64,000 bases of DNA, from contig CAZSKP010000004.1 in NCBI GenBank assembly GCA_964607485.1, positions 96,001-160,000 on the forward strand. The letters run 5' to 3'. Origin of the DNA: an uncultured bacterium. Its GTDB lineage: Bacteria > Abyssobacteria > SURF-5. Of this stretch, positions 18,882 through 55,764 are shown piece after piece. The notes under the pieces are model-generated. The model worked only from the letters and a program-made list of their open reading frames with translations. It did not search any database and was not told the DNA's origin. A program made the position numbers and the translations under genes. How positions within the stretch are numbered: the stretch's first letter is position 1; every line of letters starts with the position of its first letter.

Positions 18882-19922
18882 CTACGGTTTCCTGCCGGTG
18901 ATTCTGGTCAGAGAACCGGGAATAAATGAATGGACCTGAACATCGATAAATCCGGCATTCTCCAGATATCCAACCACTTCTCCCTCGGAATGAGCTCGTC
19001 CCTCGCTTCCGAATAGAGCCTCGTGAATGCCCCAGAGGGCCGGACCCAGCGGCCCGCATTTTTCATCGTTCAAGGTTTCCCCGACGACATGGTATTCTCC
19101 ACCCGGCTGCAGCGCCTCGTAAGCCTTTGTGAGAATCTTCAGGAGAACGCCTTCGCTGTATTGCGGCAGGTTGCTCGCCATAATCATCACATCGGCGCCG
19201 CGCGGAAGTGGGTCTCTGGTGAAGTCTGCCGGATAGACTGAGATTTTGTCTTGCATTTCCCATTGAGCTATGAACTCTTGCGCTACCTTGCACACGGGTT
19301 CGAAATCCAATACGGTCGCCTTGAGATGGGGATACTTCTGGATTGCCGCTATGCAATACGCGCCGGAACCGCCGCCGAGGTCGAGTATCATTGATCGTCC
19401 GCTCAGGTCCACATCCCTGGCAAACAGCATGCCTGCGCCCAAACCGACGGCGTACGTGGCCTCATGATACTCTCTGGCAATCTCTTCCGTCATGCTTTCG
19501 TAAAGCCCGAGCACCTTGGGAGGGGTGTCCGATTTGAGGTGGTCGGCCAGGTTCTTCCACTGCTCGAAATCCATTCCGGCAAAAAGCAGCCACGGCCCGA
19601 TGTAGGTAAGCTTTCCTCGTACCAGAAATCGCTCCACATCGGGCGCGTTCCGGTATTGGTCTCCTTCCTTTTCCAGGAGCCCGAGAGCCGCGCAGGCAAC
19701 GACAAGCCTTTCCGCATTGAGGTCACTCAAACCAACAGCGCCTGCGACTTGAGAAACATTTATGGCGCCCTCAGATACCCTGGTAAACAAATCCAATTGT
19801 ATCGCTGCTCTCAGAGTTGCACTCTGTTTGTGTCCGTAACTCAGGTTCTGCAAGCGCACGGTGTCTGTCTTTCTCTTACGAGTTGTCACGGATGCCTCCA
19901 AAACATTCTTGCGCCCTGTCAC
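18882..19922 (-). CDS. SAM-dependent O-methyltransferase with dimerisation domain
   Basis: 'LRAAIQLDLF' dimerisation helix, 'LDLGGGSG' SAM motif, 'ALQPGG'. Confidence 0.9.
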   Translation of the reverse strand: MTGRKNVLEASVTTRKRKTDTVRLQNLSYGHKQSATLRAAIQLDLFTRVSEGAINVSQVAGAVGLSDLNAERLVVACAALGLLEKEGDQYRNAPDVERFLVRGKLTYIGPWLLFAGMDFEQWKNLADHLKSDTPPKVLGLYESMTEEIAREYHEATYAVGLGAGMLFARDVDLSGRSMILDLGGGSGAYCIAAIQKYPHLKATVLDFEPVCKVAQEFIAQWEMQDKISVYPADFTRDPLPRGADVMIMASNLPQYSEGVLLKILTKAYEALQPGGEYHVVGETLNDEKCGPLGPALWGIHEALFGSEGRAHSEGEVVGYLENAGFIDVQVHSFIPGSLTRITGRKP

Positions 19923-20749
19923 GTCTGGGGTGGTGTGCCGCCTTCTTCTTGAAGCATTTGTTCTATGCTTTTTATGAAGCCCGAAAAATCAAAGGACGTG
20001 TCCCATGTGTAGGGGAGGTCCACAATTTCACCCGGATTCGAGGCCGATGCGAGCACGTTCAGCGCATCCTTCAGAACCTGGGTCTGAAGCTCGACATCAT
20101 GCGGTTTGCCGCATTGATGGCCGAGCGGGAAATTGAGGAATGCGCTGCGAGGAGGTTTGACCCGGGCCATCATGTATCTGCACGAGCCGAGGTAAATTGT
20201 GGAGAGTCCGGCTTCTTCGATCTTGCGTGCTATCAGTCCGACCGACTGATGGTCCAGCGGTCAGGCCGGGACAAGCAGGACAAAATCTGCGCCCTCCCGT
20301 TTCAGAAGAGCCAGTATTTCGGGCACAGTCTCATTCTGTAGCGCTGTGCGTTTATAGAGCCGACCCATCCCGAGCGTGACCGCAATCGGCGCCAACTTTC
20401 CTATGTACCGTTCAGCCTCGAGTTCCTTCAGCCGCTCGACGGGAAACACGCAGTTTAGGTCATTTGCGGCGTCTCTGTGGTCGAAGTAGTTGTGATGAAG
20501 CCTGAGCCTTTCGTATGGGGTGTCGATTGGAATCTGACGGAAGCTCAAGTCATTCACAGCCCAAGGGTTGAACGGCTCTTGGTCGTCTCTGGAAATGCCG
20601 GCTGAACTGACCAGCGCCAGGCAACCTTCTTTCAGCGGTTTGCTCAGCGAAGACCACGGACTCGTGTCAAATTCGGACCATTTATAGGGCGGGAATCCTT
20701 GACTCTGATACATCTCGTTGAGGGCCGATACATAATCTATGGGCTTCAT
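19919..20749 (-). CDS. Selenoprotein of the glycine/proline reductase B (GrdB/PrdB) family, UGA at 20261-20263
   Basis: Two ORFs in one frame joined across TGA: 'DFVLLVPA-U-PLDHQSVGLIARKIEEAGLST...PPR...FPLGH'; family motifs 'LVSSAG', 'DLNCVFPVERL'; hairpin directly after the UGA. Confidence 0.85.
20232..20250 (-). promoter_or_regulatory. Putative bacterial SECIS
   Basis: ATCAGTC-GGTCG-GACTGAT hairpin starting about 11 nt after the UGA, with G first in the loop. Confidence 0.75.
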
Positions 20750-52036: not shown

Positions 52037-52723
52037 ATGCTTAAGCAGCCAGAAGTGCACGATATAGAGGTCAGCGTCGCCATCGACGATCTTCTCGGCC
52101 CGCTCGGCTACGGGAAGGGCGGAGCGGTCGAGCCCTCTATCATGGAACAGATTCTGTCAGAAACCGACCGCTGCAAACAGACAATATACGGAAAGGCCAT
52201 CCATGCCTGCGTGGGAATCACGCATGCCGCCGGCCGCGACGCCTTCGAGGCGAACGGCGTGACAATCAACGACGAGACTCTCACAAGCTCGCTCGACGGC
52301 GCAGAGTCGCTCGCCGTCGCCGTTTGCACGGTGGGCGCCGGGATAGATGAGCTCATCGGCGAACACTTCGGCCGCGGCGATTTTCTCGGGGGCATGATCG
52401 CCGACGTCTTTGCGAGCCGCGCCGTCGAAGCGGCCGCCGAAAAATGCGCGGCGCTCATCTGCGCCGAGGCGCGGAGGCACAATCTCTCGGCGTCGCGTCA
52501 CCTCAGCCCGGGTTACGGAAAATGGGATGTGAGCGGCCAGCGGGCCGTGTTCGCATTGCTCGACCCGTCGCCGATAGGAGTGTCGCTGAACGAGCACTGC
52601 ATGATGCAGCCGCGGAAATCCGTCTCTTTCGTCCTTCCGCTCCTGAAGGGTGAAGTGCGCCCCGAACAACGGCGCCACTGCCAAGAGTGCGGTTTTGAGA
52701 ACTGCGGCTACAGGCGAGAATGA
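52037..52723 (+). CDS. B12-dependent methionine synthase activation-domain-like protein
   Basis: 'AVCTVG', 'SPGYGKW', 'MMQPRKSVS', C-terminal CxxCxxxxCxYR. Confidence 0.85.
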   Translation: MLKQPEVHDIEVSVAIDDLLGPLGYGKGGAVEPSIMEQILSETDRCKQTIYGKAIHACVGITHAAGRDAFEANGVTINDETLTSSLDGAESLAVAVCTVGAGIDELIGEHFGRGDFLGGMIADVFASRAVEAAAEKCAALICAEARRHNLSASRHLSPGYGKWDVSGQRAVFALLDPSPIGVSLNEHCMMQPRKSVSFVLPLLKGEVRPEQRRHCQECGFENCGYRRE

Positions 52724-52763
52724 CGTATCCGGCATCGCCGGATGCGCGGGATGAAGAAATCTT

Positions 52764-53654
52764 ATGACTCTGCTGGAACGACTCAGCGCGGGTGAGAAAC
52801 TCGTATTCGACGGCGCGATGGGCACGATGCTTCAGGCAAAGGGCCTTGGCGTCGGCGAGTGTCCGGAAGAATGGAACGCGTCGCACCCGGACGTCGTTCG
52901 GCAGATTCACCAATCCTACTTCGATGTCGGCTGCGACATCGTGGAGACGAACTCATTCGGCGGAACCCGCCTGAAGTTTGCCCGCTTCGGACTGGCCGGC
53001 AGGGTGAGGGAGTTGAACCGCAAGGCCGCCGAAAACGCGCGCGCCGCAGCCGGGCCGAATCGTTACGTCGCCGGCTCGGTGGGCCCGACGGGCGAGTTCA
53101 TCCAGCCCTACGGCAACCTGACGTATGAGGAGGTTCGCGACGCATTCCGCGAGCAGGCGAGCGCGCTCGAAGAGGGCGGAGCCGACATCATCTGTGTGGA
53201 AACGATGTCGGACCTGAACGAGGCACGGGCCGCCGTCGAGGCGGCGCGCGCGAGCACGAAGTGTGCCGTGTTCGCTTCGATGACGTTCAACCGAGACAAG
53301 CGGGGTTTCCGGACGATGATGGGCGTGGACCCCATGTCGGCCGCCGCGGCGTTGGAAAAGTACGGAGCGGACGTGATAGGCTCGAATTGCGGCGTCGGGC
53401 CGGAGGGAATGTTTGACATCTTGAGAGAGATGCTCGAAGCCACGTCGAAGTTTCTGCTTGTCAAGCCCAATGCGGGCGTGCCCCGCCTCGAGGGCGGCAA
53501 GACAATTTTTCCCGAGACGCCTAAGGGGATGGCCGAAAAGATGCCTCCGCTGCTCGACATCGGCGTCAGAATACTCGGCGGCTGCTGCGGAACGACGCCC
53601 GAACACCTGCGCGAGATTGTGAGGGTAGTCAGGCCGCATACGGAGGGTTCATGA
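52764..53654 (+). CDS. Homocysteine S-methyltransferase (MetH Hcy-binding domain)
   Basis: 'FDGAMGTML', 'ETNSFG', 'GSVGPTG', 'GSNCG', 'PNAG', 'GGCCGTTP'. Confidence 0.93.
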   Translation: MTLLERLSAGEKLVFDGAMGTMLQAKGLGVGECPEEWNASHPDVVRQIHQSYFDVGCDIVETNSFGGTRLKFARFGLAGRVRELNRKAAENARAAAGPNRYVAGSVGPTGEFIQPYGNLTYEEVRDAFREQASALEEGGADIICVETMSDLNEARAAVEAARASTKCAVFASMTFNRDKRGFRTMMGVDPMSAAAALEKYGADVIGSNCGVGPEGMFDILREMLEATSKFLLVKPNAGVPRLEGGKTIFPETPKGMAEKMPPLLDIGVRILGGCCGTTPEHLREIVRVVRPHTEGS

Positions 53655-54467: not shown

Positions 54468-54842
54468 ATGTCGAGCAGAAGTTCGAAGGCGTTTGAGAGA
54501 TTCCTGTTAAAAAGAGGCGTCATCGATGAGGCCGCCCTGCGGGAAGTCGAATCGATGAAAGAGGACATGAACATCTCGTTGGGCGTGGTCGCAATGAACC
54601 GCGGACTGTTGACTTCGGAGCAGATCGGAGAAATCCTGGCTGCCAAGAAGAAGACGAAGAAGAGATTCGGACAGGCCGCCCTCCACCTGAAATTTCTCAA
54701 CCGTGTCCAGCTCCGCGACCTCCTCGCCGAACAGGAGCAGGTGAACCTCGACGTGGGAGAACTGCTCGTCTTGACGGGCCACCTCTCATACGAACAACTC
54801 CAAAAAGAGCGCCGCGCCTTCGCCCGCGCAAAGAAGCGATAA
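54468..54842 (+). CDS. Stand-alone MshEN-like repeat protein
   Basis: Repeats 'LGVVAMNRGLLTSEQI', 'RFGQAALHLKFL', 'VGELLVLTGHLSYEQL'. Confidence 0.65.
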   Translation: MSSRSSKAFERFLLKRGVIDEAALREVESMKEDMNISLGVVAMNRGLLTSEQIGEILAAKKKTKKRFGQAALHLKFLNRVQLRDLLAEQEQVNLDVGELLVLTGHLSYEQLQKERRAFARAKKR

Positions 54843-54929: not shown

Positions 54930-55700
54930 TTAGGAGATTCTTCTTTCACCTTCCGGCTTGAATCCGAAGAGCTCGCTCTGGATGATTCTCGTCACGAGCG
55001 TCGTCTGGTCCGCCGTGAAATATACGCCACGCGTCCGGTGTTCTTTCCTTCGATATTCACGCGCATGTTCTTCTGACCAGAAGAACACACTCTCCTTTCA
55101 GAACGCATGGATGATGCATTTGTCCTCGATCTTCGAGAAATTGACATCCGGCACGAAGACGATCGGCTCGCATCCCTGCTCGGCGGCCTGATAATTCAGG
55201 TCGCTGTCGATTCTCATGCGCATCGGCCGGGAGCAGTGCGCGCATTCCGAGCTGACTTCCACCGACAGCGCTTCTCCGCGTAAGCGCCCTTGCACGAAGG
55301 GCGTTGCAAACGCATCGGCCGCTCAGGCGGCGTAAATCTGCTCGCCCGTGCTGAAGGTGAGATGGTGCGGCGTCCTTTCGACCGTCACCGGATACGCCCA
55401 CACTGCCAGGCCTTCATCATTCCTGCAGATGAACGTCATGTGCCGTTCCAGGTCATCGAACACGGACCGCACGCGGTCGAGGGATATTGACAGTTTCTCC
55501 GCGATGAATTCGGGCGAGATCGGCTCCTTGACTCTGGGGAGTTCTCTGACGATACAGTGGTGCACAGCTCGATGCTCGTCGGTCATGAACCGCAGGTCGG
55601 CGCGTATTTTATTCTTAGCCCTGCCAATCTGTTTCTCCCACAGAAACGGCGGTACCGAGAGCATGTAACGCCAAAGTCCGCTCATGAGTTTGCTGCTCAT
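54930..55700 (-). CDS. MerB-like organometallic lyase with two in-frame UGA (Sec126, Sec201)
   Basis: 'WAYPVTVERTPH...IYAA-U-AADAFA...VSSECAHCSRPM...IIHAF-U-KESVFFWSEEHAREY'; one continuous 256-aa frame with hairpins after both UGAs. Confidence 0.8.
55066..55087 (-). promoter_or_regulatory. Putative SECIS for the second UGA
   Basis: TGTTCTTCT-GGTC-AGAAGAACA hairpin about 11 nt after the UGA. Confidence 0.7.
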
Positions 55701-55764
55701 CGCCTCACTCCTTTCCAGGTTCGAACGCCGATACCATCAAGGTTTCACGAAAGGGAAATTCCCT

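Follow-up and report, generated by a model that had tools for sequence, protein, structure and literature searches.

A locus in the genome of an uncultured bacterium of the lineage Abyssobacteria; SURF-5 raises the question of whether both catalytic cysteines of a MerB-like protein can be replaced by selenocysteine (Sec) within a single polypeptide and, if so, what such a protein would do. The locus lies in a 64,000-nucleotide stretch of DNA (positions 96,001 to 160,000 of contig CAZSKP010000004.1, GenBank assembly GCA_964607485.1), which was analysed as a whole and is referred to here as the window. A first-pass annotation, made from the sequence alone, had proposed that one minus-strand frame of 256 codons encodes a MerB-like lyase with a TGA at each of the two catalytic cysteine positions and with a hairpin after each TGA, and had considered such a protein outside any mer operon unusual. 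We found that the window protein has a MerB fold with Sec, Asp, and Sec codons at the three catalytic positions, and we hold with high confidence that it is a genuine double-selenocysteine MerB-fold protein.

Both TGA codons fall, as had been claimed, in one frame (at 55325-55323 and 55100-55098); this frame runs on the minus strand from the ATG at 55700 to the TAA at 54932-54930 and comprises 256 sense codons with TGA read through. The hairpins proposed to follow the two TGA codons are also present in the sequence, and both recur in every full-length relative examined. The ATG start is backed by an orthologue alignment that begins at residue 1, and orthologues are colinear to approximately residue 247. 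The features of the gene, including the putative Sec insertion sequence (SECIS) hairpins, are as follows.

54930..55700, minus strand: coding sequence of the predicted MerB-like selenoprotein, 256 codons, ATG 55700-55698, TAA 54932-54930; supported by orthologue alignment, PF03243, and MerB fold
55708..55714, minus strand: Shine-Dalgarno-like AAAGGAG, 7 nt before the ATG, read directly in the sequence
55323..55325, minus strand: first UGA, codon 126, predicted Sec126 in YAA-U-AAD; equivalent to MerB Cys96 by alignment
55314..55316, minus strand: Asp129 codon GAT; equivalent to the MerB proton donor Asp99, aligned with the D of TWCALD in a MerB paralogue
55285..55303, minus strand: core of SECIS 1, stem CGCCCUU/AAGGGCG of 7 bp; its loop, CGUGC, begins 26 nt past the UGA; overlaps codons T133-R139
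55098..55100, minus strand: second UGA, codon 201, predicted Sec201 in AF-U-KESVFF; equivalent to MerB Cys159 by alignment
55063..55090, minus strand: SECIS 2, 12 bp here; conserved core of 7 bp spanning 55068-55085; the tetraloop GGUC starts 19 nt past the UGA

The two UGA codons are conserved far beyond this genome. Orthologues in three other genera of the same family (79, 77, and 71% identity) carry TGA at both sites, and in these three sister-genus orthologues protein conservation persists past both TGA codons to the C-terminus at a level as high as before them. A scan of one genome per species across 185,579 species genomes yielded 476 relatives; among the genome loci of the best 80 of these 476, scored by tblastn-anchored coordinates, TGA was found at both sites in 80 of 80, and the contexts AF-U-K and AA-U-AAD, without a Cys-Sec (CU) dipeptide, were the same in all 80. 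In an even sample of 401 genomes from the phylum of one locus-bearing genome (G061, locus L033; Thermodesulfobacteriota), 30 genomes had a match at E <= 1e-8, including 26 strong matches (E <= 4e-85); all 26 hold at least two TGA codons (17 with two, one with two plus a TAA, and eight with three, where the third is taken to be the terminal stop, as in genome G007). Metagenome loci were searched with an alignment of 13 proteins of the C/U type (i.e., with Cys at site 1). Although the query was of this type, all of the 80 best metagenome loci were TGA/TGA forms, with TGA at site 1 in 80/80 and at site 2 in each of the 71 loci that reach it, the other nine being cut by contig ends. Overall, TGA, and never TAA or TAG, occupies both sites in 154 of 154 full-length loci; homologues thus neither end at the second TGA nor use another stop codon there. 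The one part of the first-pass annotation that these data overturn is the view of the protein as unusual, as the double-Sec form is by no means peculiar to this genome: it predominates in a large family that hundreds of species representatives carry, and is widespread in anaerobic bacteria.

A bacterial SECIS is a hairpin in the coding sequence, immediately downstream of the UGA, with G and U in its apical loop, and the bacterial SECIS model allows the loop to start 16 to 37 nt past the UGA; the loops observed here, 26 and 19 nt past the first and the second UGA, respectively, fall within this range. The GGUC tetraloop of SECIS 2 is the same as that of the Escherichia coli fdhF SECIS; unlike the fdhF-type case, one 771-nt gene here carries two independent SECIS that differ from each other in sequence. 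SECIS 2 reads, in DNA, TGTTCTTCT-GGTC-AGAAGAACA within 55090-55063, and encodes F206-F207-W208-S209-E210-E211. Alignment of relatives showed pairing in 93.9% of cells for hairpin 1 (columns 23-29 with 35-41 past the UGA), with its inner five pairs formed in 80 of 80 distinct sequences and with five GC-to-UA double changes, and in 99.6% of cells for hairpin 2 (columns 16-22 with 27-33), which shows 13 compensatory double changes. For both hairpins, all 500 shuffles fell short of the observed values for pairing and covariation, and pairing fell to 32-71% when the partner columns were slid. In addition, among 81 sequences synonymous-codon entropy is close to zero only at codons 134-138 and 206-211; P134, F135, V136, G138, F206, F207, and E210 are each encoded by a single codon in 80-81 of the 81, whereas at conserved residues in the rest of the gene almost the full set of synonymous codons is in use. 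Hairpin 2 also folds with a minimum free energy of -14.9 kcal/mol (z = -2.37). Both hairpins are under selection as RNA.

In 12 of the 13 double changes in hairpin 2, a U-A pair becomes C-G, which replaces Trp208 by Arg and silently changes the codon of Ser209. At the codon level, UGG to CGG at position 208 is accompanied by UCA to UCG at position 209, such that the closing pair is kept; this exchange was seen in 12 distinct sequences (columns 22 and 27 of alignment A5; loci L053, L055, L059-L061, L067, L070, L074, L077, L090, L092, L103, and L104). With a Trp-to-Arg replacement that travels with a silent change in a Ser codon, the SECIS 2 stem couples RNA and protein evolution.

The genome from which the window derives also encodes the machinery for Sec insertion, as the first-pass proposal would require: selA, selB, selC, and selD are all present, with scores of 577 bits for SelA, 386 bits for SelB, 392 bits for SelD, and 67.1 bits for tRNA-Sec, for which ARAGORN reports the anticodon tca. 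SelB scored over its cut-off in 11 of 11 genomes of the source phylum. The general marks of a bacterial selenoprotein (i.e., a conserved UGA, SECIS hairpins, homologues with Cys, and selA/selB/selC/selD) are hence all found for this gene, and, judged from these sequence features, its UGA codons are almost certainly read as selenocysteine. As a separate observation, the selD gene of this genome (G000:C18:62527-63453) itself carries one in-frame TGA, and SelD is therefore probably a selenoprotein here.

Assignment of the protein to the MerB family, also part of the first-pass annotation, is supported by both profile and structure comparisons. With U replaced by C, residues 107-233 match the Pfam MerB family PF03243 with 54.9 bits versus a gathering cut-off of 27. 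An AlphaFold2 model built from a 27-sequence alignment reached a mean predicted local distance difference test score (pLDDT) of 88.5 and a predicted template modelling score (pTM) of 0.86, and a Foldseek search of the PDB with this model returned MerB or MerB2 for all of the top 11 matches (E 3e-11 to 6e-7; target TM-score 0.64-0.81), while the first match after these 11 has E = 0.05. Residue equivalences were taken from three alignments, namely phmmer against MerB2 (5C17), the family profile against 5C17, and BLASTP against a paralogue from a sister genus; Sec126 corresponds to the first and Sec201 to the second catalytic Cys in all three. Asp129 aligns with the catalytic Asp, a position that is Ser in MerB2. 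The earlier claim that TGA occupies both catalytic Cys positions and that D129 stands at Asp99 was thus borne out against the paralogue, which has the motifs TWCALD and AFCDKVHFF, and for the two Cys sites against 5C17 as well. In terms of the catalytic triad Cys96/Asp99/Cys159, numbered here as in the accessible portion of Haft & Gwadz (bioRxiv 10.1101/2022.07.06.499078), the Asp is kept as D129 and both Cys positions are UGA (Sec). Asp129 is invariant in the 27-sequence alignment (A3) and is D in 41 of 41 database relatives that are stored with W at both Sec sites, and the active-site signature is kept as U-A-x-D and F-U-x-x-x-F-F-x-S-E-E-H-A.

The Cys/Cys paralogue used in these alignments (L025:1390-2028, genome G006) passes the MerB equivalog model NF009710 with 204.1 bits versus a cut-off of 193. 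Canonical Cys/Cys MerB was seen in two sister genomes, G006 (L025:1390-2028) and G001 (L023); G006 has it alongside the double-Sec gene. With the query used, only one MerB-like gene was found in the genome of the window, and no canonical MerB paralogue.

To place the window protein relative to known systems, we compared it with MerB and MerB2 and with the one MerB-like selenoprotein that we found in print. MerB (PDB 3F0O, 3F0P, 3F2F) and MerB2 (5C17) have the same fold (target TM-score 0.76-0.81) and are colinear with the window protein, with nucleophile-x-x-Asp followed by nucleophile-x-x-x-x-F-F-x-S; the window protein differs from them in having Sec rather than Cys as nucleophiles, in an extra N-terminal segment of approximately 40 residues compared with MerB, and in sequence, with only 17-28% identity. 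Identity with canonical MerB was rejected on the basis of the equivalog scores, Sec in place of both Cys, and the lack of a mer operon beside the gene and of MerA in the genome searches. SaoL, the "selenocysteine-assisted organometallic lyase" (NCBIfam NF040728), is described in the accessible portion of the same Haft & Gwadz preprint (bioRxiv 10.1101/2022.07.06.499078). Like the window protein, SaoL has a MerB fold with Sec at the Cys159 position and Asp at the Asp99 position; according to that text, it is also borne by anaerobes, its database copies are truncated at the UGA, and its substrate is suspected to be organometallic. However, SaoL has one Sec, located in a CU dipeptide, and Cys at the Cys96 position (bioRxiv 10.1101/2022.07.06.499078), whereas in the window protein both positions are Sec and Phe precedes Sec201. 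SaoL furthermore marks a nine-gene SAO locus, as far as the available part of that source describes it, while the neighbours of the window gene include no Sao families (SaoA, 147.8 bits versus a cut-off of 360), and the window protein scored 39.5 bits against NF040728 (cut-off, 140 bits) and is longer than SaoL (256 versus approximately 213 residues). SaoL identity was therefore rejected, given the lack of a CU motif, the lack of a SAO locus, and the score of 39.5 versus 140 bits. No model in NCBIfam release 20 claims the window protein. Because it fails the tests for both SaoL and MerB, and passes PF03243 as well as the general marks of a bacterial selenoprotein, we regard the window protein as a MerB-fold selenoprotein apart from either.

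Bacterial proteins with more than one Sec per polypeptide are represented in NCBIfam by, for example, ArsM_DUF2284_UU, ArsM_AhpD_UU, and MTase_UXPK_star ("double selenoprotein"), several of which are linked to metalloid chemistry. These proteins have unrelated folds and, judged by their names alone, carry Sec in short UU, UxxU, or C-terminal motifs; by contrast, the two Sec residues of the window protein lie 75 residues apart and would meet only in the folded active site. In the portions of two reviews that were available (PMC9312934, 2022; PMC13188914, 2026), the only entry under MerB is SaoL, with one Sec, and the latter reports two to three Sec residues in only a small subset of 119 families. 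In the literature that is searchable in full text (i.e., outside subscription journals and supplements), no account of a MerB-like protein with two Sec residues was found, and SaoL was the sole MerB-like selenoprotein to be found there.

Database records of the family help to explain how it has escaped notice. As had been claimed earlier, gene callers break up this gene. Standard gene calling splits the window frame into pieces of 125, 65, and 52 residues and, of the 266 database relatives that were aligned to the query, 151 stop at exactly residue 125 and another 19 at exactly residue 200. Cys is found at site 1 in 17 of the 266, and those that extend to site 2 halt just before it; three relatives (P0035, P0129, and P0181) combine Ser at site 1 with Cys at site 2, and no C/C member of this subfamily was found among the 266. 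Homologues with Cys at the Sec positions thus exist for each site within the family and for both sites in canonical MerB. W is stored at both sites in 41 of the 266 records; these residues probably come from gene calls made under a table in which TGA encodes Trp, and no stored W/W protein maps onto the loci that we fetched. The N-terminal fragments P0054, P0058, and P0068, on the other hand, map exactly onto loci in which the frame runs through the TGA. In four further relatives (P0124, P0126, P0131, and P0165), neither the two active-site positions nor the Asp are kept (E/G/L, G/E/-, G/H/G); these forms are presumably non-catalytic.

The genomic surroundings of the gene agree with the earlier statement that it lies outside a mer operon. 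On the same strand, 64 nt upstream, is a gene for a UgpC-type ABC ATPase (NF008653, 439 versus a cut-off of 432), and downstream are a convergent small open reading frame (ORF) of the c-di-GMP-binding type, a PilZ protein, and a gene with a homocysteine S-methyltransferase domain; the neighbours in sister genera differ, and include a URO-D-like protein and a phosphodiesterase. The homocysteine S-methyltransferase-domain gene (52764-53654, plus strand; PF02574, 254 bits) is preceded by an ORF of 228 residues at 52037-52723, and the region 52037-53654 (plus strand) resembles a split methionine-synthase-type module. A scan for promoters found no sigma-70-like sites, and a scan for terminators found two terminator-like sites versus 1.4 expected, which is not significant alone; one candidate can be listed.

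54812..54831, minus strand: terminator-like stem plus T-run, approximately 100 nt past the stop codon; weak consensus match

Among the 81 loci compared, the gene directly upstream on the same strand encodes a MarR-type regulator in 23 and a MerR-type regulator in 19 (42/81 together; e.g., L052:5352-5924 and L070:5462-5911), and a 4HBT thioesterase lies downstream in 10; all three types of neighbours are lineage-specific, and none is found in the window. The C-terminal effector domain of the MerR-type neighbours shows a conserved W-H-x-E-F-E...H-Q-E-F-L-E, without a conserved cysteine, and these regulators therefore provide no link to mercury. A weak hint towards mercury comes from HgcA, which in the 401-genome sample was found in 15 of 26 carriers of the double-Sec gene versus 107 of 375 non-carriers (odds ratio 3.4, Fisher p = 0.003, with genomes that are not independent). 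The genome of the window has no true HgcA, as its two HgcA-like genes score 174.5 and 228.3 versus a cut-off of 275 (G000:C2, approximately 187.2-188.6 kb, L116:769-2100, minus strand; G000:C9, approximately 62.2-63.7 kb, L117:742-2331, plus strand). It does encode an HgcAB-like fusion protein (NF043039, 464.7 versus a cut-off of 285) as well as a second fusion, in which a CpaM methyltransferase is joined to an HgcA-like corrinoid/membrane domain and after which comes an HgcB-like ferredoxin. In a quick maximum-likelihood tree, the four sequences of the source phylum form one clade (SH-aLRT 99), placed among sequences labelled mostly Thermodesulfobacteriota; as the root rests on a single, very long-branched outgroup, we claim no direction of transfer.

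With regard to function, we consider it probable that this double-Sec MerB-fold protein has MerB-like carbon-metal(loid) lyase chemistry. SelB and Sec-tRNA(Sec) would bind each hairpin, such that residues 126 and 201 become selenocysteine; translation would pass both UGA codons because each has its own SECIS hairpin within the coding sequence. Sec126 and Sec201 would replace Cys96 and Cys159 as the metal-binding pair, with the acid kept as Asp129. The two selenolates may then act as chelating ligands for the soft metal or metalloid in an organometallic compound, and Asp129 would protonate the leaving carbon, which would cleave the carbon-metal bond as in MerB. Our leading guess for the substrate is methylmercury or another organomercurial at trace concentration. 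Sec insertion, the lyase chemistry, the substrate, and release of the metal product without MerA are all steps that we infer. According to the available portions of two publications (PMC11639659 and PMC10114901), selone-based mimics of the MerB site break Hg-C bonds faster than their sulfur analogues do; by analogy, faster cleavage would fit a role at very low substrate levels.

A number of observations weigh against this reading. Of the 80 sequences, 27 and 7 fail to form the two outer pairs of hairpin 1, and the fold of this hairpin is thermodynamically unexceptional in its GC-rich context (z = -0.39). A search of the whole window against Rfam matched no family at the gathering threshold, and at E <= 10 over 54980-55340 only the chance matches mir-567 and a snoRNA were found, although nothing can be read from this null, as there is no curated general model for bacterial SECIS. 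The scores against the NCBIfam models for MerB proper, EC 4.99.1.2, namely NF009710 and NF033555 (53.8 versus 193 and 48.7 versus 200, respectively), lie far under the equivalog cut-offs, and function hence need not equal that of MerB. No mer genes and no merA/merR/merT/merP context were found beside the MerB-like gene, no MerA scored over the cut-off in the genome (best, 411.9 versus 454.45), and no operon partner is conserved over the 81 loci. With regard to chemistry, an Hg(II) bis-selenolate would be very hard to release, which disfavours multiple-turnover Hg chemistry, and selenols would mostly be ionised at neutral pH, such that the Cys-to-Asp proton relay of MerB would not be copied unchanged and Asp129 would have to gain its proton by a route other than that of MerB. 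Because product release and proton source are problematic, two rival functions for a double-Sec MerB-fold protein stay alive, and the substrate may also be something other than mercury. One is that the protein acts without turnover, as an ultra-high-affinity trap, sensor, or chaperone for soft metals (e.g., Hg(II), Cd, or Cu(I)), or as a one-shot suicide demethylase whose end state is a metal selenolate bound to the protein; we consider both versions unlikely. Hg-Se bonds are stronger than Hg-S bonds, and neither MerA nor another obvious metal acceptor nor an operon partner was found, while the MarR- and MerR-type regulators directly upstream in 42 of the 81 loci suggest a stress-induced stand-alone gene; all of this would suit such a trap. 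However, a pure binder would not need the Asp that is invariant in the 27 aligned sequences and in the 41 W/W-type relatives, the MerR-type neighbours with no conserved effector-domain cysteine do not resemble Hg-MerR, and two Sec insertions would be costly for a stoichiometric role. The other rival, to which we give considerably less credence, is redox re-use of the MerB scaffold, in which Sec126 and Sec201 would cycle between selenols and a diselenide in an oxidoreductase- or peroxidase-like reaction without metal. Homology with Hg-bound structures places the two residues next to each other in the MerB active site, and bacterial selenoproteins are mostly redox enzymes, according to the accessible parts of PMC9312934 and PMC13188914. 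By contrast, the entire MerB active-site signature is kept, including the acid, the protein has neither a thioredoxin-like fold nor a CxxC or UxxC motif at the site, and no redox partner gene is conserved nearby in the 81 loci.

Two further rivals would deny the protein its second half or its selenium. That the locus is a pseudogene or three small ORFs, from which only the 125-residue N-terminal protein is made, would agree with the three pieces produced by gene calling and with the many relatives that end at residue 125; nevertheless, the 154 full-length loci never have TAA or TAG at these sites, conservation is equal past the TGA codons, the middle and last pieces have neither a ribosome-binding site nor a conserved start, the hairpins are conserved to the nucleotide, and three database fragments map to loci with a continuing frame. 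This explanation is very improbable. Least credible of all is a variant genetic code, under which TGA would stand for one of the ordinary amino acids (e.g., Trp or Gly), as the 41 relatives stored with W at both sites might suggest. The adjoining ABC ATPase gene terminates with TGA, which is therefore an ordinary stop in the source organism, and reading TGA as sense would fuse or extend many neighbouring frames; moreover, the TGA/TGA gene is found in many standard-code phyla, and the genome has the full Sec machinery, with SECIS hairpins in the gene. Consequently, neither a pseudogene nor three ORFs nor a variant code is a tenable reading.

A second candidate selenoprotein gene in the window is less clear. 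The first-pass annotation had noted a SECIS near 20232 with the same GGUC loop; in the ORF at 19760-20749 (minus strand), we did find an in-frame TGA (20263-20261, in LLVPA-U-PLDHQ) followed by a GGUC-loop hairpin, CAUCAGUC-GGUC-GGACUGAU. However, the minimum-energy fold does not pick this hairpin, and the match of the ORF to GRDB (glycine/sarcosine/betaine reductase selenoprotein B) is weak (23.9 bits versus 22).

The double-Sec MerB-like form, which is widespread and mis-annotated, is surprising to specialists, and surveys of merB-like genes and of selenoproteomes miss this family because it is stored almost only as fragments or mistranslations. It also constitutes a natural test of the effect of selenium on carbon-metal cleavage and on product release. 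A tentative suggestion, which we consider possible but rather doubtful, is that the family represents the missing mer-independent methylmercury demethylase of anoxic sediments, i.e., a high-affinity selenolate lyase that acts on organomercurials at the picomolar methylmercury of natural settings. The family would then be found mainly in syntrophic and sulfate-reducing lineages that carry hgcAB, and the mercury would be passed to a thiol or selenol acceptor or would end as inert Hg-Se. In its available portion, a 2021 critical review (PMC10114901) states that the organisms and pathways of mer-independent anoxic demethylation are still to be characterised. The gene described here provides a concrete, clonable candidate for this process, from exactly those anoxic lineages, and, if true, the demethylase reading would account for a share of the still unassigned demethylation under anaerobic conditions, by which net methylmercury is controlled.

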